From: a virus
Taxonomy: Duplodnaviria > Heunggongvirae > Uroviricota > Caudoviricetes
Virus record (IMG/VR): IMGVR_UViG_2541047679_000002
Length of the DNA: 6,008 nucleotides
Direction: 5' to 3' (one strand)
Shown: in pieces, positions 1 through 6,008 of the stretch
How the letters are laid out: each line of letters starts with the position of its first letter
Position numbering within the stretch: position 1 is the stretch's first letter
Translations under genes and position numbers: made by a program
Notes under the pieces: model-generated
The model's database searches: none
Seen by the model: only the letters and a program-made list of their open reading frames with translations
What the model was told of the DNA's origin: nothing

Positions 1-2
1 CT

Positions 3-3000
3 ACTGGTGCATCCATCTGGCTTGCCACGAAAAAAGATAAACGCTTTGACGCTGTGGTTGTCGCTGTATCCGCTAACAACATGGTTCATGTTGTGGAACA
101 ACTGGTAAACATGTACCCGGCGGCAAAAATCACCTGCGCACTGGATAATGACCGGAAATCAGCTACAGAAGGAAAAGGGAATACCGGCCTGCGGACTGGC
201 TATGAAATCTTATCGAAATTCAACGATGTCCGCTGCGTCTATCCAACTTTTGAAGACGATCCGCAAATGGAGTGCAGTGACTTCAACGACCTGCACAAAC
301 TACGTGGACTTCGTGAAACAGCACGTCAACTGTTTGCAACTGCAAACCGCCTGAAAACTGGCACTGATTTGCTATCTCTGACGCTCAACCGCCTGAAGAC
401 AATTAAGCGGGATAACCGTCGTACTTTTGCCAAAGAGCTGCTGAGAGCGGTGGATATTGGCATGCTAACCTGTCCGGTTCCTAACAGTCCGTCAGACTTA
501 TTTAACATGTTCTGCATCGTTCTGCGTGAAATGGGGCTGGAAAATATCTATCGCGCTACGGTAAAAGACCACATTGCCCGTCGCCTGAATAAAAAGTGCC
601 GTATTGCCCAGGCTCCGCGCTCATTCAGCGAACGCATAACTGATCCCAATAAACGTCCTCAACATATCACCTATAAGCGTTTTGAAACTTCGGTAATGAC
701 CGATGACGTCCTGAAGTACGTGCAATCACTACAGGGGATAGTCATCGTCCGTGCTGGTATGGGTTCCGGCAAATCTACTGGATTGTTACGACCGTTAATG
801 CATAGCTCAGAACGTGGTATCTCTGTTGCTCACCGTGTCTCCCTTATTGGTGGCCTGTGGGAAATGATGACAGAAGGAAAAGGTGTAAAAGCCGATATCC
901 TGCACTATCAGGACCCTGGCTATCAGGAAATGGCTCCATACGCCAGTAAACTGACCATCTGCATAAACTCGATTGTTAAAAACTGCTGGCAACCGTTGAT
1001 GCGCCAGCACGACTATTTTGGCTTTGACGAGGCCACACAAGGGCTACGTGCCGTTCTTTCCGGTCGGGCTATGGAAAACCCGGTGGCTGTATTCCATACG
1101 CTAATTGACGCGCTGGCCAGAACGGAACAACACCCAATCATGGTGGATGCTGATGCGAACGATCTGCTGGTTGACCTGGCTGAACTGGCTATGAAACGCC
1201 GTGAAGAACTAGGTTTACCGGCATGGCTGCAGATCCACGTAATTGAATTACCTGTTGATGTTCGCAACCGCGAAACAGGTGAGCCAATCCGGGTTTTTTA
1301 TACAGAAAAAGATCGCATTATGACCGAGGTGGTGAAAGCTGTATCGGATGGCGAAAAAATCATGTTGGCCACCGACAGCTCCACCTTTGCAGAAGATGTG
1401 ACAGCCACCCTGAGAATGCATTTTCCTGGTAAGAAATTTCTGTGTGTAAACCAGAAAAGTAAACAGGATGAAGAAGTCGATGCCTTTACCAACCAGCCAA
1501 AAGTAATGGTGATGAAATACGATGGACTGATCTACAGTCCGTCAATTTCCTCCGGGGTGTCATTTGAGAAAAAACATTTTGACCGTCATTTCGGCATGTT
1601 CTGCGGTGAAGTTGTGCCCAGCGACGCAGTGCAAATGCTACGCCGCGACCGTACAGCAAAAGAATTTATTATCGGCTTTGATAAAGCTCGTGCAAAACGC
1701 GAGACTGATCCGCAAAAAATAGAACGTGCATTCGCCCAGGCATTACTTGCTACCGCAGGCATGAACGGTGAACTGACGGATGTCGTTTTCGATGGCGACC
1801 GTATATCAATGGGGGTGGCCAATACCGACTTTACCAGGATGAAAATTAAAGCTGCCGCAATTGAAGCGTCTGCGCGTAACGACTACGCCAGCAACATGAT
1901 CTGCATCATGCACAGCGACGGTTATAAGGTATCGCCATTAGCTACCGATTATGCCGCGAATGATTTTGGTAAAGAGCTGCGCAAAGAAGCGCGGGATATT
2001 GTGTGGGAACAGACGCTGGATCTGCACCTCAATACAGAGACACCAGAAGAATCAGAGCGTGAAGAACTGCTAAAAAAACGTGCGCTAACGCTTGAAGAAC
2101 AGGCAAAACTGGTCCGCTGGGATATTGAGAACGAACTGAAATTACCGGTTGAAGAAGGCTCGCTGAAATTCTATTTCGATGGCGCTCGAGACAAAATTCG
2201 CCGTTATGAAACGATGCTGCTTGATGAAGTCACAGCCCGTCGTTATGACCGTGAAGAAGCGGCTATCAATTTTACATACGCGTACCGCCAGACCGGACAG
2301 TGGCAATATTTTGTGGTGACCGCGATGACGCGCGAGCAGGCTGATGATGTATTCAAAGCGAAATTTCCAGGAATAATCGACTACAAGGTAAAAGCTACCC
2401 CTGCTGTTGAGGTCGGCATGCGCGGATTCTATGCGCTTAAATCAGCGACTCTCCGGCAGTACTTTATCGACTGCGGTATCGACCCTGAAACTATGACCGG
2501 CGAAGCGACGCAGGAACGTCTCAAGTTCGCTAGAGACAACCTAATGACAGCAGAACGCCGTGATATGTTGAATAACGTTCTGCACATTGGTGGCTTTATG
2601 ACACCAAAAGGGAAGCCTAAAGTGCCGGAAGCACTGTTTAAAAACATCTGCGACTCTCTCGGCCTAAAAACAGGAAAACGTCGCGGCAGAGATGGCGATA
2701 AGCGCCCGACATTGCGTTTTGTTGAGCCTGAGTCTGTAGCATTTATACTTGATATTCTTGCGCAACGTCAGGAGGACGGTATGACGTTGAAAGCTCGCAA
2801 GGCGGAAAAATCAACGACCGAAGTGGATCGCGATTTGTCATTAAATATATATATGAATGGTGAAACGCGATCCACAAACACGGTGGAACAGGATTCCCCT
2901 CGTTCAGCTATATCACAGGCTTTGGCCGTATTGCCGGTGGCTGTTCCTGAGTCCTGGGCGATGAGTGCTCTGCCATCAGCTGAACTGGAATCTATCAGGG

Positions 3001-3143
3001 GGTGGTCAGTTGACAGCATCGCATACACGTTTGCAGCCCTTTATATGACTGAGTTTATGGATTTGCTGTCCGGTCATGAGATTAAGTTGCTGAAGGCTTT
3101 TATAGGCCCACGACATGCCAGCGATGAGTTTTGTGTAGTTTAG
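3..3143 (+). CDS. Replication protein, primase/helicase-like (Toprim-like motif plus P-loop NTPase); 5'-partial, continues upstream of the window
   Basis: Continuous ORF (track 54..3143, 1029 codons) whose frame stays open back to nt 3 with no stop, so the true start is upstream. Motifs read directly: DND at nt 144-152 within KITCALDNDRK (Toprim-like DxD); Walker A GMGSGKST at nt 756-779; Walker-B-like FGFDE at nt 1017-1031. Stop TAG at 3141-3143. Domain calls are from motif recognition only. Confidence 0.78.
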   Translation, partial: TGASIWLATKKDKRFDAVVVAVSANNMVHVVEQLVNMYPAAKITCALDNDRKSATEGKGNTGLRTGYEILSKFNDVRCVYPTFEDDPQMECSDFNDLHKLRGLRETARQLFATANRLKTGTDLLSLTLNRLKTIKRDNRRTFAKELLRAVDIGMLTCPVPNSPSDLFNMFCIVLREMGLENIYRATVKDHIARRLNKKCRIAQAPRSFSERITDPNKRPQHITYKRFETSVMTDDVLKYVQSLQGIVIVRAGMGSGKSTGLLRPLMHSSERGISVAHRVSLIGGLWEMMTEGKGVKADILHYQDPGYQEMAPYASKLTICINSIVKNCWQPLMRQHDYFGFDEATQGLRAVLSGRAMENPVAVFHTLIDALARTEQHPIMVDADANDLLVDLAELAMKRREELGLPAWLQIHVIELPVDVRNRETGEPIRVFYTEKDRIMTEVVKAVSDGEKIMLATDSSTFAEDVTATLRMHFPGKKFLCVNQKSKQDEEVDAFTNQPKVMVMKYDGLIYSPSISSGVSFEKKHFDRHFGMFCGEVVPSDAVQMLRRDRTAKEFIIGFDKARAKRETDPQKIERAFAQALLATAGMNGELTDVVFDGDRISMGVANTDFTRMKIKAAAIEASARNDYASNMICIMHSDGYKVSPLATDYAANDFGKELRKEARDIVWEQTLDLHLNTETPEESEREELLKKRALTLEEQAKLVRWDIENELKLPVEEGSLKFYFDGARDKIRRYETMLLDEVTARRYDREEAAINFTYAYRQTGQWQYFVVTAMTREQADDVFKAKFPGIIDYKVKATPAVEVGMRGFYALKSATLRQYFIDCGIDPETMTGEATQERLKFARDNLMTAERRDMLNNVLHIGGFMTPKGKPKVPEALFKNICDSLGLKTGKRRGRDGDKRPTLRFVEPESVAFILDILAQRQEDGMTLKARKAEKSTTEVDRDLSLNIYMNGETRSTNTVEQDSPRSAISQALAVLPVAVPESWAMSALPSAELESIRGWSVDSIAYTFAALYMTEFMDLLSGHEIKLLKAFIGPRHASDEFCVV

Positions 3144-3160
3144 AGGGTAGAAGCGTGGGA

Positions 3161-3427
3161 ATGATGCAAGAGTGCCTCGTTTTGATTGAAGGGTATGATC
3201 CGTATGTTGTTAACGTCAGTAGAATGGATACTGGCTATAGCGACTACAAAACTGGTCGTGAACTGCCGTTCACCATCATCAGGATGAATAGCTTTGGCGA
3301 TGATGATGCTGTTTATTGCTGTATAGCCAGCGATAAAAACATGGAAGACCGGACAGATGAAGCCCGTATGCTATTGAGGAAATATAAGGTAAAGCCGTTA
3401 TCAGAGAATAACGCTGAGAGGGGTTAA
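3161..3427 (+). CDS. Hypothetical small acidic protein (about 88 aa), first gene of an AT-rich three-gene cassette
   Basis: ORF in track (3131..3427). ATG at 3161 is preferred over the TTG at 3131 and GTG at 3155; purine-rich GAGGGTAGAAG lies upstream. It begins 18 nt after the replication gene stop. Stop TAA at 3425-3427. No recognisable family; start codon uncertain. Confidence 0.5.
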   Translation: MMQECLVLIEGYDPYVVNVSRMDTGYSDYKTGRELPFTIIRMNSFGDDDAVYCCIASDKNMEDRTDEARMLLRKYKVKPLSENNAERG

Positions 3428-3429
3428 AA

Positions 3430-3825
3430 ATGGCAGTTCAATCATACAAATACGAATCCCCTTTGGATAAGGGATACATTCGTATCAAGTTAAGTCGTTC
3501 TCAGCATAAGGCTATTTTTAAGGTAAGGAAAATTCGCATATTGGATGCGTATGCGTATTACTACAACGGTGAAAATGTTGTTGTTGAACACTTTCTTGCA
3601 CGATGGTTTGTAGCTCTGATTTTTGTCCCTCTCCTGTTAATTGGTACTTTTGTGGATGGTTTTCCTAGTACATGGCGGGAGATAAAGAAAGGCTTATTCC
3701 CGCGTAAGTACGGCAGATTTTCGCAAGATAGCTGGCGAGTTATACCGGGTAAACATTCTGTGGATGAGCAACCGATTGTTGATTACTGGTTGAAGCGTAT
3801 GGCTGATGCTAAAAAAGTTGATTGA
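3430..3825 (+). CDS. Hypothetical membrane protein (131 aa) with one predicted transmembrane helix
   Basis: ATG at 3430 preceded by strong SD GAGAGGGG (3416-3423, 6-nt spacer), 2 nt after the upstream stop. Hydrophobic segment WFVALIFVPLLLIGTFV, basic flanks. About 38% GC by hand count over 3430-3489. Confidence 0.65.
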   Translation: MAVQSYKYESPLDKGYIRIKLSRSQHKAIFKVRKIRILDAYAYYYNGENVVVEHFLARWFVALIFVPLLLIGTFVDGFPSTWREIKKGLFPRKYGRFSQDSWRVIPGKHSVDEQPIVDYWLKRMADAKKVD

Positions 3826-3843
3826 GTTGTGGAAGGAGTATTT

Positions 3844-4068
3844 ATGAACTGTAACAAAAATGAAGAAACTCGCCTGGTTTGGACGGTAGTAATCGGAGAT
3901 AAAAAGGGCGGTGAAGAGCCTCATTTTGATTATTCTGTGGCTTTGCAGGCTCTCATCCTTGAAGCTCAGATATACCAACAAGAGATGCAGAAGAACCCTC
4001 AATTGGAACCTCTACCAATTGGCCTATTTTGCGAGCGAGTATCAGCGGCGGAACTCCCTGATATCTGA
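3844..4068 (+). CDS. Hypothetical small protein (74 aa)
   Basis: ATG at 3844 preceded by strong SD GGAAGGAG (3831-3838, 5-nt spacer); track ORF 3829..4068 starts at an upstream GTG. Stop TGA at 4066-4068. No recognisable family. Confidence 0.58.
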   Translation: MNCNKNEETRLVWTVVIGDKKGGEEPHFDYSVALQALILEAQIYQQEMQKNPQLEPLPIGLFCERVSAAELPDI

Positions 4069-4081
4069 TGCCCTCCAACAG

Positions 4082-4100
4082 CTGATCAGGTTCTGATCAG
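4082..4100. promoter_or_regulatory. Two copies of the palindromic octamer CTGATCAG separated by 3 bp, each containing a Dam GATC site; candidate operator or weak hairpin
   Basis: CTGATCAG at 4082-4089 and 4093-4100; the octamer is its own reverse complement; GATC at 4084-4087 and 4095-4098. Lies 14 nt after the stop of the 3844-4068 ORF. Confidence 0.3.
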
Positions 4101-4129
4101 TTAGTAAAGCAAACTATAAAAACACCTGT

Positions 4130-4149
4130 CCCCGTGACTGGTCACGGGG
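4130..4149. promoter_or_regulatory. Perfect 9-bp inverted repeat CCCCGTGAC-TG-GTCACGGGG; candidate protein-binding palindrome or hairpin
   Basis: Left arm 4130-4138 and right arm 4141-4149 are exact reverse complements. Not followed by a T-run on the + strand, so not a canonical intrinsic terminator; on the minus strand a T5 run starts 6 nt after the stem. Confidence 0.3.
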
Positions 4150-4169
4150 TAAAATGTCTTTGCAAATTA

Positions 4170-4199
4170 TTGACGTGTGCGTCGTTTTGACGGTAAAGT
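4170..4199 (+). promoter_or_regulatory. Candidate sigma70-type promoter TTGACG-N18-TAAAGT
   Basis: TTGACG at 4170-4175 and TAAAGT at 4194-4199 (18-bp spacer); predicted start near 4207. Hexamer match only. Confidence 0.3.
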
Positions 4200-4206
4200 T
4201 ACTCCG

Positions 4207-4282
4207 CTGCGGTAAATCCCGCAGTCGGGACTCTCAACCCCGAAATCCGAACGACGCACAACACGCGCCAGCGTGTTTTTTT
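4207..4282 (+). ncRNA. Candidate small terminated transcript (about 76 nt): sRNA or leader/attenuator
   Basis: Bounded by the candidate promoter and the intrinsic terminator. Contains hairpin CTGCGG/CCGCAG (4206-4211 / 4219-4224) and a second possible stem CGGG/CCCG whose loop carries ACTCTCAAC (4230-4238). The overlapping track ORF 4154..4369 runs through the terminator and is unlikely to be coding. Confidence 0.3.
4260..4282 (+). terminator. Rho-independent terminator
   Basis: Stem ACACGC (4261-4266), loop GCCA, stem GCGTGT (4271-4276), followed directly by a run of T ending at 4282. Confidence 0.6.
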
Positions 4283-4364
4283 GTGTGTATAAGCCTGCGC
4301 ATATCCGAATTATGGTGGCTCAGGCGGGGCAGCCGAAAGGCTGGCCGGTGTCGTTTGGGCCGGT

Positions 4365-4420
4365 GTTGAGAACCCCGCTTGGGCTACCACCCTATAGAGA
4401 TTCTCAACTCTGGTGGTAGC
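4365..4420 (+). promoter_or_regulatory. Interleaved complementary boxes in the icd-like leader; candidate antisense-RNA/target pairs (P1 c4-type) or RNA pseudoknot
   Basis: GTTGAGAA (4365-4372) is the exact reverse complement of TTCTCAAC (4401-4408); GCTACCACC (4383-4391) is the exact reverse complement of GGTGGTAGC (4412-4420). Order is A, B, A', B' (crossing), ending 29 nt upstream of the icd-like ATG. Confidence 0.4.
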
Positions 4421-4448
4421 ACTGTTCTTCCAAACAAGAGTGCATACC

Positions 4449-4613
4449 ATGTTCAAATTCAAATTTGCGGCAGTCGTTCGCACAGACAAAAAGTCACACA
4501 TCCATCATCTTTCCACTATCGCGTCATCTGAACGGGAAGCTCGTCGCCAGTTCGCCAGCCGGTTTGTCCTGGTATTGTCTGCCCGTATTCCGGTGCGCGA
4601 GGTGGCTGCATGA
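4449..4613 (+). CDS. icd: Icd-like protein (host cell division inhibitor Icd family), 54 aa
   Basis: ATG at 4449 with weak SD AAGAG upstream. Translation MFKFKFAAVVRTDKKSHIHHLSTIASSEREARRQFASRFVLVLSARIPVREVAA shows the SEREAR and AR(I/L)PV pattern I recall for Icd-like proteins of enterobacterial prophages. Track ORF 4413..4613 starts at an upstream GTG lacking an SD. Confidence 0.7.
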   Translation: MFKFKFAAVVRTDKKSHIHHLSTIASSEREARRQFASRFVLVLSARIPVREVAA

Positions 4614-4843
4614 ATCAGGTAAAAATGAACACTGTTGGCCTGCTGGAATCGTTGGATGAACGTCTGGCTCAGGTCTATGCGCTTGTGTCATCAGCCCATC
4701 GTACAGTCTCCAGTTGTGAGGCGTCGATTTATCTCTCAGAAGCCGGGAAGCTCCTTCAAATCGCGTGTGAGTTGACACACGAAGCACAGGGGTATTCAGC
4801 ATCTCTCTCGTCGCAATTGCAGCACAATAAGGAGGCCAAATGA
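4610..4843 (+). CDS. Hypothetical protein (77 aa), translationally coupled between icd-like and antirepressor genes
   Basis: ATG at 4610 overlaps the icd-like stop (ATGA, 4610-4613); its own stop overlaps the next start (ATGA, 4840-4843). Predicted helical, no recognisable family; an internal ATG at 4625 is an alternative start. Confidence 0.55.
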   Translation: MNQVKMNTVGLLESLDERLAQVYALVSSAHRTVSSCEASIYLSEAGKLLQIACELTHEAQGYSASLSSQLQHNKEAK

Positions 4844-5616
4844 GCGCGTTAGCTGTATTTTCGTTTCAGGAAGAGCATCAGGTTCGTGTAGTGATGATTA
4901 ACGGTGAGCCGTGGTTTGTTGCATCTGATGTGTGTATGGCGGCGGGTATTGATTCTACGGCCATTAGAAAGTTGGATGAGGACGAAAAGGGTCTGCATTT
5001 AATGCAGACCCCTGGCGGATACCAGAATGTTTCAATCATCAACGAGTCAGGTCTATACACCCTGATCCTCCGCTGCCGTGACGCGGTGAAGCAAGGCACA
5101 ACAGCTTGGCGGTTTCGCAAATGGGTAACGAACGAAGTCTTGCCCTCTATTCGCAAAAATGGAGAGTACGTTTACATCGAGCCTGAGCCAATGCGAGCAG
5201 CGGAGCCGTTGAACGGGAGGCAGAAAGCGTATCTGCGAGGGCTGATTAACGATATAGCACAAAGTTTTCGGTGCCGAAATGCCTGGATCAGTGGAATATG
5301 GTTGGCTTTGCGTCGGGCGTGTCGTAATCCATCCCCGAACCCCATAACGGTTGATGATTTGCCAGCAATTGCGGCAGAACTGCGCAGGATTTTGACGGCT
5401 GCTGAGTCGGCATTGAGGAACATGCGCACGTATGAACGGGAGTTGTTGCGTGATGTTGTTCGTGGGGGTAGGCGGAGTATGTCGTGTGGTGATTTGCCCA
5501 TCATCGATATCAACTCTGATCTGGAAAAGGCGTTACCCGCACATTTTGAACTGGCAGTTCAAAAACTTGAGCAGTTATCCGCGCAGTTAAAGCCAGCAGA
5601 AATCACTAATAAATAG
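4840..5616 (+). CDS. Bro-N domain antirepressor-like protein (258 aa)
   Basis: Strong SD AAGGAGG (4829-4835) 4 nt before ATG 4840. N-terminal about 110 aa match the Bro-N pattern (FSFQ...GEPWFVASDVC...LDEDEKG...GGYQ...INESGLYTLILR...WVTNEVLPSIRKNGEY). C-terminal about 140 aa not recognised. Stop TAG at 5614-5616. Confidence 0.85.
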   Translation: MSALAVFSFQEEHQVRVVMINGEPWFVASDVCMAAGIDSTAIRKLDEDEKGLHLMQTPGGYQNVSIINESGLYTLILRCRDAVKQGTTAWRFRKWVTNEVLPSIRKNGEYVYIEPEPMRAAEPLNGRQKAYLRGLINDIAQSFRCRNAWISGIWLALRRACRNPSPNPITVDDLPAIAAELRRILTAAESALRNMRTYERELLRDVVRGGRRSMSCGDLPIIDINSDLEKALPAHFELAVQKLEQLSAQLKPAEITNK

Positions 5617-5788: not shown

Positions 5789-6008
5789 TTAGCCGAAATA
5801 TGTCAGCCATGCTAACTGCATTGCTGACATGGGGCTGTTTGCACTGCCTGACCACGCATAATTCTGGCCATTATAATGAAACTCAACAACGTATGAGCCA
5901 TCACCAATATTTCTCACAGGCTTAAATACCGGCTTAGATACAGGTGAAGAAGGCGCGGGCGGTTGCTGTTCTTCTACGCTCTCTTCCTCTTCCTCTTCCT
6001 CTTCCTCT
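5789..6008 (-). CDS. Hypothetical protein, 3'-terminal part only (gene start lies beyond the right window edge); poly-Glu tract, Pro-rich linker, small C-terminal domain
   Basis: Hand translation of the reverse complement from nt 6007 gives 72 sense codons with no stop: EEEEEEEEESVEEQQPPAPSSPVSKPVFKPVRNIGDGSYVVEFHYNGQNYAWSGSANSPMSAMQLAWLTYFG, ending at TAA (complement of 5789-5791). Not in the ORF track because it has no start in the window. Confidence 0.55.
   Translation of the reverse strand, partial: EEEEEEEEESVEEQQPPAPSSPVSKPVFKPVRNIGDGSYVVEFHYNGQNYAWSGSANSPMSAMQLAWLTYFG
5981..6008. repeat. Hexanucleotide tandem repeat (CTCTTC)n, at least 4.7 copies, running off the window edge
   Basis: CTCTTC repeated from 5981 to the end of the window; on the minus strand this reads (GAAGAG)n = Glu-Glu repeats inside the partial CDS. 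Confidence 0.85.

Follow-up and report, generated by a model that had tools for sequence, protein, structure and literature searches.

We analyzed a 6,008-nucleotide stretch of Caudoviricetes DNA (IMG/VR record IMGVR_UViG_2541047679_000002; hereafter, the window), focusing on three small open reading frames (ORFs), ORF1 to ORF3, that directly follow its replication gene. Megablast and blastn searches with the 6 kb identified the window as part of an N15-like linear phage-plasmid (telomere phage) and not of a satellite element, although an initial annotation made from the sequence alone had spoken of a satellite or prophage-like element. Escherichia phage YDC107_1 (genus Ravinvirus) matches it end to end at 98% identity. 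Matches were also found in 199 plasmid records, among which Klebsiella and Escherichia predominate and nearly all are non-mobilizable. The gene order in annotated relatives is Q, cro, the cB repressor, repA (CyRepA1 family), a few small hypothetical genes, icd-like, antA-like, and a Bro-N antirepressor, after which the protelomerase gene lies convergent with repA. The window shows both hallmarks of the N15-like repA-telN interval: a CyRepA1-type RepA gene convergent with a protelomerase gene, and an anti-immunity locus (immA) in which a C4-type CA RNA is followed by icd and antirepressor genes. See Table 1 for the coordinates of all features.

The three ORFs lie head to tail on the plus strand, with gaps of 11, 2, and 18 nt counted from the repA stop, and are packed as the initial annotation described. 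The sizes it gave for ORF2 and ORF3 (131 and 74 aa) were right. ORF1 was read there as 88 aa from the ATG at 3161; its likely start is the GTG at 3155, for a length of 90 aa, because the resulting MGMMQECLV aligns with MGKQRECLV of N15 gp36, and both GenBank (YDC107_1) and NCBI protein P0008 agree. Position 3131, where the cassette had been thought to begin, is merely a TTG within repA. The strong Shine-Dalgarno sequences reported before ORF2 and ORF3 were seen (GAGAGGGG and GGAAGGAG, respectively), and ORF1 has one too, AGAGGG, which is located 7 nt before GTG 3155 and overlaps the repA stop. ORF1 and ORF3 compared with N15 and phiKO2-type loci gave a nonsynonymous divergence (pN) of 0.15-0.21 and a synonymous divergence (pS) of 0.73-0.91, and dN/dS for ORF2 is 0.07-0.27. 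With pN far below pS, this comparison marks all three as genuine protein genes under purifying selection. A minus-strand ORF at 3694-4002 (102 aa) overlaps two of these conserved plus-strand genes and has no support for coding.

All three ORFs correspond to catalogued PHROGs of unknown function and are hypothetical proteins in GenBank. The cassette had been put forward as an undescribed system; this holds for the function, but the genes themselves are already catalogued as phrog_18790, phrog_15458, and phrog_21657. Apart from these PHROG matches, the homology and structure searches that had been proposed returned no family, PADLOC, or PDB match. Pfam and NCBIfam scans of the three proteins gave no match, no PADLOC-DB 2.0 hidden Markov model (HMM) matched any of them at E up to 10, and profile searches of PDB sequences with all three families gave nothing meaningful. 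Word-indexed homology searches recovered close relatives in enterobacterial elements only. We found no functional data in the literature on N15 gp33-36, phiKO2 gp31-34, or P840 ORF32, and the P840 paper (PMC10612081) has no data on the small genes.

Table 1. Features of the 6,008-nt window and the basis for each assignment
Feature	Position	Strand	Basis or remark
repA, 3' three quarters; CyRepA1-family replication protein	1-3143	+	98% identical to YDC107_1 repA coding sequence
ORF1, 90 aa; acidic (pI 4.7), soluble; N15 gp36 family	3155-3427	+	phrog_18790, E 7e-54
ORF2, 131 aa; basic (pI 9.8); one strongly hydrophobic proline-containing helix (residues 58-76)	3430-3825	+	phrog_15458
ORF3, 74 aa; acidic (pI 4.5); phiKO2 Gp31 family	3844-4068	+	phrog_21657, E 1.5e-50
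Perfect palindrome CCCCGTGAC-TG-GTCACGGGG	4130-4149	.	~20 nt upstream of the Pa -35 hexamer
Start of immA: Pa-like promoter (4170-4199); a1/b1 targets, isrK-like RNA, and terminator (4193-4281); C4-type CA RNA (4308-4394)	4170-4394	+	
icd-like, antA-like (4610-4843), and Bro-N antB-like antirepressor (4840-5616) genes	4440-5616	+	PHROG, Pfam, homologous annotations
telN (protelomerase), 3' end	5789-6008	-	Convergent with repA; annotated at the equivalent position in YDC107_1 and related plasmids

Next, we compared the interval from the repA stop to the C4 region (the slot) across 47 IMG/VR loci fetched by the RepA C-terminus, together with annotated phage and plasmid loci, which gave 35 distinct sequences (L001-L051 and the window). 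Slot length varies from 547 to 2908 bp, and the 35 slots, which draw on more than 20 ORF families, display 27 gene arrangements. The proposal that the genes occupy a variable cargo slot therefore stands, and they are not conserved core genes in all relatives. The first position is taken by gp36 (the ORF1 family) or by a protein that is either hydrophobic (63-75 aa) or helical (98 aa), and the middle by gp35-like, gp34-like, Eaf-like (DUF5448), gp33, or ORF2-family genes. The ORF2 family is present in 12 slots, gp36 in 9, and Gp31 (the ORF3 family) in 6; only two of the 35 slots, those of the window and YDC107_1, have the full trio. Elsewhere, ORF2 has other neighbors or stands alone, and gp36 and Gp31 accompany the gp33 family instead of ORF2. 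Thus, the co-inheritance expected of a multi-gene system, such as a toxin-antitoxin pair, an abortive-infection system, or another operon-encoded complex, was not observed.

Close relatives show how these combinations arise. A group of ~46-kb E. coli plasmids is 93% identical to the window up to 3062, 99% identical over 3415-3831 (ORF2 with its Shine-Dalgarno sequence), and 90% identical from 4084. With 99% identity enclosed by flanks of 90-93% and junctions at gene borders, ORF2 has evidently moved as a module. The deletion variants L005 and L064 are 98-99% identical to the window as far as 3227; L005 and Escherichia albertii plasmid pEA26_5, at the same identity, then jump to 4084 or 3799, and pEA26_5 retains ORF3 alone. 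The ORFs are dispensable, as near-identical relatives lack them. Judging from the sharp breakpoints and the scattered occurrence, the trio is a recent recombinant set of independent, dispensable modules that appear to recombine at gene borders, and not a system. This evolutionary part of our reading, a mosaic accessory slot with independent genes, is well supported. It corrects the earlier interpretation of a single three-gene system composed of a membrane protein and soluble partners: in an ordinary mosaic accessory slot, three independent modules came together by chance to give what looked like a cassette, with the trio in 2 of 35 slots, ORF3 alone in pEA26_5, and no PADLOC, Pfam, or NCBIfam match. 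A toxin-antitoxin reading of the basic ORF2 with the acidic ORF3 was ruled out, as the two do not co-occur. Junctions with close relatives are also seen inside genes, at 3062 (within the last 80 nt of repA) and at 3227 (ORF1 codon 25 from GTG 3155).

Base composition had been cited as a sign that the genes were acquired separately, with 38% GC in the cassette set against 58% in repA. Both 60-bp counts were correct (38.3% and 58.3%), but they sampled an atypical part of repA, and the true dip is about 6 points rather than 20: GC is 48.4% for repA, 42.5% for the cassette, and 40.4% for ORF2 (37.1% at third codon positions). In a windowed analysis the dip persists, though it is modest, as the 938-bp window with the least GC in the 6 kb (41.8%, versus a mean of 49.3% and a standard deviation of 1.4 for non-overlapping windows). 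However, ORF2 homologues lie below their own repA in six of six elements of differing GC content. Low GC is therefore a trait of the ORF2 family rather than a mark of recent import, and it is weak as a sign of separate acquisition.

The locus is readily compared to those of other telomere phages. N15 genes 33-36 and phiKO2 genes 31-34 have the same position, strand, packing, and flanks (repA, C4-type RNA, icd, antA, antB, and telN). The middle genes differ, with gp35, gp34, and gp33 in N15, an Eaf-like DUF5448 protein, Gp32, and others in phiKO2, and a single phrog_15458 gene in the window that is absent from both of those phages. In Klebsiella telomere phages (Sci Adv 2025; PMC12042878), telocin and immunity cassettes that are expressed in lysogens lie between repA and the protelomerase gene, and the remaining genes of that interval are drawn as "unknown function." The use of the same interval indicates that the slot carries exchangeable cargo. 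This cassette type, recognized by a Colicin_im-like 181-aa protein, is present in six of our loci (L029, L031-L033, L036, and L051). The window, in contrast, has no bacteriocin-like gene and no colicin-immunity Pfam match, and corresponds to the "Tel0" arrangement. Silpe et al. (Nature 2023; PMC10432266) likewise portray the repA-telN interval as variable, within a region that is conserved otherwise. In Vibrio phages, it holds TF-smORF and VqmA-Qtip modules that trigger induction, and small proteins from this locus can govern phage fate; N15-type loci, 210 of 271, were set aside from that study. Unlike those modules, in which a DNA-binding transcription factor is paired with a counter-oriented small ORF, the three genes in the window are co-oriented on the plus strand and have no helix-turn-helix or other DNA-binding match.

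ORF1 covers positions 3-82 of the 82 in the phrog_18790 profile, which places it in the gp36 family. Protein identity to N15 gp36 is 74%, with synonymous sites saturated, and comparison with N15-type genes gives pN of 0.17-0.21 and pS of 0.77-0.91. Genes of this family always directly follow repA, including in N15 and phiKO2. The AlphaFold2 model of ORF1 is poor, with a predicted local distance difference test score (pLDDT) of 59.7 and a shallow alignment. ORF3 covers positions 1-74 of 74 in phrog_21657 and is thereby a member of the phiKO2 Gp31 family; it is 71% identical to the protein of the phiKO2 Gp31-type gene, with a dN/dS of 0.06. Its family is always the last in the slot, provides the sole slot gene of pEA26_5, and includes a longer, 105-aa relative. 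ORF3 has a weak likeness to the core of the gp35-like proteins (hhalign E 0.003, probability 11%). An assignment of ORF3 to DUF5448/P22 Eaf was rejected, with no PF17526 match at E up to 1 and an hhalign probability of 0.1% versus Eaf-like proteins. Both ORF1 and ORF3 are small, acidic, and soluble, and their binding partners are probably host or phage proteins.

ORF2 matches phrog_15458 at E 8.9e-92 over positions 1-131 of 131 with the helix conserved and is therefore assigned to this family, which all 143 aligned ORF2 relatives match as well. A full HMMER scan retrieved 164 representatives, 27 of them at E of 1e-10 or better; most are 110-130 aa, and none carries a name. Members share the pattern Y.Y..P...GY....KKQHN..F, followed by a hydrophobic helix that contains a conserved proline and, after it, QKKYGSFSSD. 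A single hydrophobic helix flanked by basic residues had been noted for this protein, and our analysis agrees: the Kyte-Doolittle value is 2.27 for the 19-mer at residues 60-78, and the whole regions N- and C-terminal of the helix have net charges of +6 and +5. Among 133 family members, 92% have a 19-mer with a Kyte-Doolittle value of at least 1.6, and 95% have a proline inside it. The predicted ORF2 fold has no relative among solved structures, a Pfam scan of the 143 relatives gave scattered single matches only, and a scan of representative bacterial genomes for the QKKYGSFSS motif found no ORF2 relative.

ORF2-family genes are located downstream of repA in four telomere-phage lineages, namely the N15-like elements, Yersinia phage P840, and the metagenomic L059 and L060. 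In P840, the gene is third after repA and last before telN; in L059, it stands alone between RepA and TelK; and in L060, its start overlaps the repA stop. ORF2 and RepA identities track each other in the distant lineages (54.9/52.7, 44.4/49.7, and 34.4/44.1). Within the N15-like elements, by contrast, ORF2 identity of 34-99% is discordant with RepA identity of 85-93%, and such allele shuffling is a pattern typical of host-interaction or exclusion genes. More distant ORF2 relatives are found in small-gene arrays beside replication and nucleotide-metabolism genes in large phage contigs. These contigs appear to be virulent, and we take their arrays to be early regions, a distribution that fits an infection-phase rather than a prophage-only function. 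Among these contigs are a 500-kb AT-rich viral contig, a phage contig with a T4-type Gp23 capsid gene, and 115-kb Aeromonas phages (Plateaulakevirus); the family members there (L052 5983-6366, L065 2372-2719, and L056 3989-4381) are each surrounded by long runs of small unannotated genes.

ORF2 and N15 gp33 families alternate in the slot. The ORF2 family is present in 12 of 35 slots, the gp33 family in 15, and both in none (Fisher p 2e-4, uncorrected for phylogeny), so that 27 slots carry one or the other and 8 carry neither. Like ORF2 and its relatives, gp33 (~115 aa) has a proline-containing hydrophobic helix, and the two families may be functional equivalents. Homology between them is not supported, as the hhalign probability is 2-3% and HMM scores of 8-10 bits are limited to the helix region.

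A scan of the plus strand from 2900 to 4170 found no promoter-like site. Given this, the 2-18 nt gaps, and the ORF1 Shine-Dalgarno sequence overlapping the repA stop, the ORFs are probably translated from the repA transcript, an arrangement with which the conserved palindrome and Pa promoter beyond ORF3 are consistent. They would then be made together with RepA, at a low level as long as the element is a plasmid prophage and strongly once CB is derepressed, and each protein would probably act alone as an accessory early protein aimed at the host. ORF2 could be modeled as an alpha/beta domain that faces the cytoplasm and is anchored to the inner membrane through the proline-containing hydrophobic helix. 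We favor a membrane-level early function for ORF2 because its family is found in both temperate and apparently virulent large phages, the gene is dispensable, and its alleles are shuffled. The likeliest form of this function would be superinfection exclusion, or else a related activity at the envelope or in host takeover, a guess that we offer with little confidence. T4 Imm, P22 SieA/SieB, and HK97 gp15 are small, dispensable, membrane-anchored exclusion proteins of temperate and virulent phages. The comparison to ORF2 is limited to how such proteins work, and no match from these families appeared in Pfam, PHROG, or fold searches. Overall, the explanation that we consider probable is that the three are mosaic accessory genes of the N15-like slot, co-transcribed with repA, and that ORF2 has a membrane-level early function; for all three proteins, the functional part is inferred.

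Several observations count against this explanation. Both flanks of the helix are net positive across the ORF2 family, averaging +5.4 and +2.3, and positive charge on both sides of a single helix is unlike a typical bitopic exclusion protein. Furthermore, the AlphaFold2 model of ORF2, which is confident (pLDDT 95), places a strand after the helix. We infer from the model that this strand completes the N-terminal sheet, in which case both flanks of the helix may be on the cytoplasmic side. The charges and the strand together do not favor a periplasm-exposed exclusion protein. The family, defense-system, and structural searches gave no functional clue for any of the ORF proteins. The sole terminator-like match between 2900 and 4170 falls inside ORF3 (3999-4022) and is a weak hairpin that has only 3 G-C pairs and a loop of 8 nt. 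Finally, only nine phage proteins, including RepA, were detected in the proteome of a Klebsiella telomere-phage lysogen, and the small unknowns of the slot were not among them (PMC12042878).

A different role for ORF2, and perhaps for gp36, would be to assist RepA in replicating or maintaining the linear replicon, for example as a membrane tether for the replisome or plasmid. The position of ORF2-family genes downstream of repA in four lineages, the tracking of RepA identity in the distant ones, the basic character of ORF2 (pI 9.8), and the overlap of the ORF1 Shine-Dalgarno sequence with the repA stop all argue for such a role, and the 27 of 35 slots with ORF2 or gp33, never both, suggest a semi-core role in two forms. 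Phage phi29 p16.7 and p1 are membrane organizers of linear-genome replication. ORF2 resembles them in its length of ~130 aa, one hydrophobic anchor, basic character, a gene encoded with replication genes, and a linear phage genome. However, we detected no homology, the helix of ORF2 is central and not N-terminal, and ORF2 is dispensable and absent from N15. Other data also speak against a replication role: repA, telN, and telRL suffice for a linear plasmid and repA alone for circular replication (PMC10612081), N15 and phiKO2 have no ORF2-family gene, both ORF2 and gp33 are missing from 8 of 35 slots, near-identical plasmids are without ORF1 and ORF2, and distant family members are found in large phage contigs far from any RepA-like gene. 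With ORF2-gp33 homology itself unsupported (hhalign 2-3%), we regard a replication role as unlikely. A more speculative and distinctly improbable version is that the ORF2 and gp33 families are two forms of one semi-core telomere-phage function, membrane-anchored, with a previously unseen fold, and encoded in the repA operon. Such a function would serve to tie the hairpin-ended replicon to the membrane in replication or segregation, or else it would represent a new exclusion family shared with large virulent phages.

A role as lysogenic-conversion cargo, in which expression from the plasmid prophage would benefit the host through phage exclusion or through competitor killing and immunity, also seems improbable for these genes. 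ORF2 is unlike colicin-immunity proteins, there is no toxin gene in the window, and the ORF2 family is common in apparently virulent large phage contigs, which have no lysogenic state; the absence of the slot's small unknown proteins from the lysogen proteome points the same way. On the other hand, RepA is detectable in lysogens, so the repA operon is transcribed, and analogous telocin-immunity cassettes occupy the same slot. Other slot occupants consistent with such cargo are a small protein with a signal-peptide-like N-terminus, recognized by reading, and a 270-aa putative lipoprotein (weak LPAM_1 match, E 0.33). The original proposal of one undescribed defense, abortive-infection, toxin-antitoxin, or anti-defense system, with a membrane effector and two soluble partners, has in its favor tight one-strand packing in a cargo slot, a basic membrane protein beside two small acidic proteins, and the competition cargo in the slots of relatives. 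It is now very improbable and, on the co-occurrence data from sequence, largely refuted: the components are together only in the window and YDC107_1, ORF2 is found alone or with other neighbors, a natural variant has ORF3 alone, gp36 and Gp31 pair elsewhere with the gp33 family instead of ORF2, and PADLOC gave no match at E up to 10.

Of the three genes, only ORF2 is a real lead, given its family of 164 representatives, a confidently predicted fold that is unmatched, a recurrent position after repA, and its either/or relationship with gp33. N15-type loci are the majority type (210 of 271; PMC10432266), yet their small genes have been skipped by functional studies. Knowing what ORF2 does would reveal what this position is used for in most telomere phages.

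Some other slot occupants have recognizable features. In L029, the plus-strand gene at 6625-7170 encodes the 181-aa colicin-immunity-like multi-helix protein (PF03857, E 2.6e-5). Convergent with it, at 7197-8330 on the minus strand, is a gene for a 377-aa glycine-rich protein with a hydrophobic C-terminus that, read by eye, looks like a pore-forming toxin; the plus-strand ORF families I and J of this contig are probably shadows of the toxin gene. The Eaf-like protein in the phiKO2 slot corresponds to P22 Eaf/DUF5448 (PF17526). The gp35-like proteins relate to the N-terminal part of the Eaf-like proteins and have the look of diverged paralogues (hhalign 92%; L003, L004, L020, L022, and L035). 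The gp34-like proteins may be related as well, with hhalign probabilities of 62% versus Eaf and 0.1% versus gp35, and an N-terminal helix is common to all three groups.

With regard to the flanking genes, the 5' end of repA is ~840 nt beyond the window; the frame is open from base 3 and ends with TAG at 3141-3143, and the gene is also 98% identical to those annotated "plasmid replication protein, CyRepA1 family." The last ~12 residues of RepA vary among RepA subgroups, with tblastn matches ending at residue 288 or 293 of 300. The repA locus is present twice, in opposite orientation, in several IMG/VR contigs (L015/L016, L031/L032, L033/L051, L038/L039, and L040/L041), and many plasmid records match the window at two places. 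Such doubled loci could stem from hairpin-ended linear plasmids assembled as head-to-head dimers, or from replication intermediates. The telN assignment also derives from a tblastn search with its 72-aa C-terminus, and the TelN part in the window includes a nine-glutamate run (EEEEEEEEES...) ~60 residues ahead of the C-terminal end.

Downstream of the slot, what had been called an immunity module is actually the anti-immunity locus immA, with a C4 RNA, an isrK-like RNA, icd, antA, and a Bro-N antB. Rfam scores are 73.8 bits for C4 (4308-4394; gathering threshold 45), 54.7 bits for isrK (4206-4281), and 30.4 bits for c4-a1b1, and the sigma-70-like Pa-like promoter comes from a promoter scan. 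The palindrome upstream of Pa lies where conserved sequence resumes past the right edge of the variable slot; across 28 related loci, the arms of the palindrome do not vary, and the adjacent bases do. Neither strand offers it a good U-tract, so instead of acting as a classic terminator, the palindrome may bind a protein or insulate the end of the repA operon. It was rejected as a Sop partition site because it differs from the annotated phiKO2 motif (TGCGACCACGGTCGCA). In CP025712.1, a 71-aa "hypothetical protein" is annotated at the position of window 4154-4369, where it covers the isrK-like RNA with its terminator as well as the beginning (5' part) of the C4 RNA, and is probably a spurious call over RNA genes.

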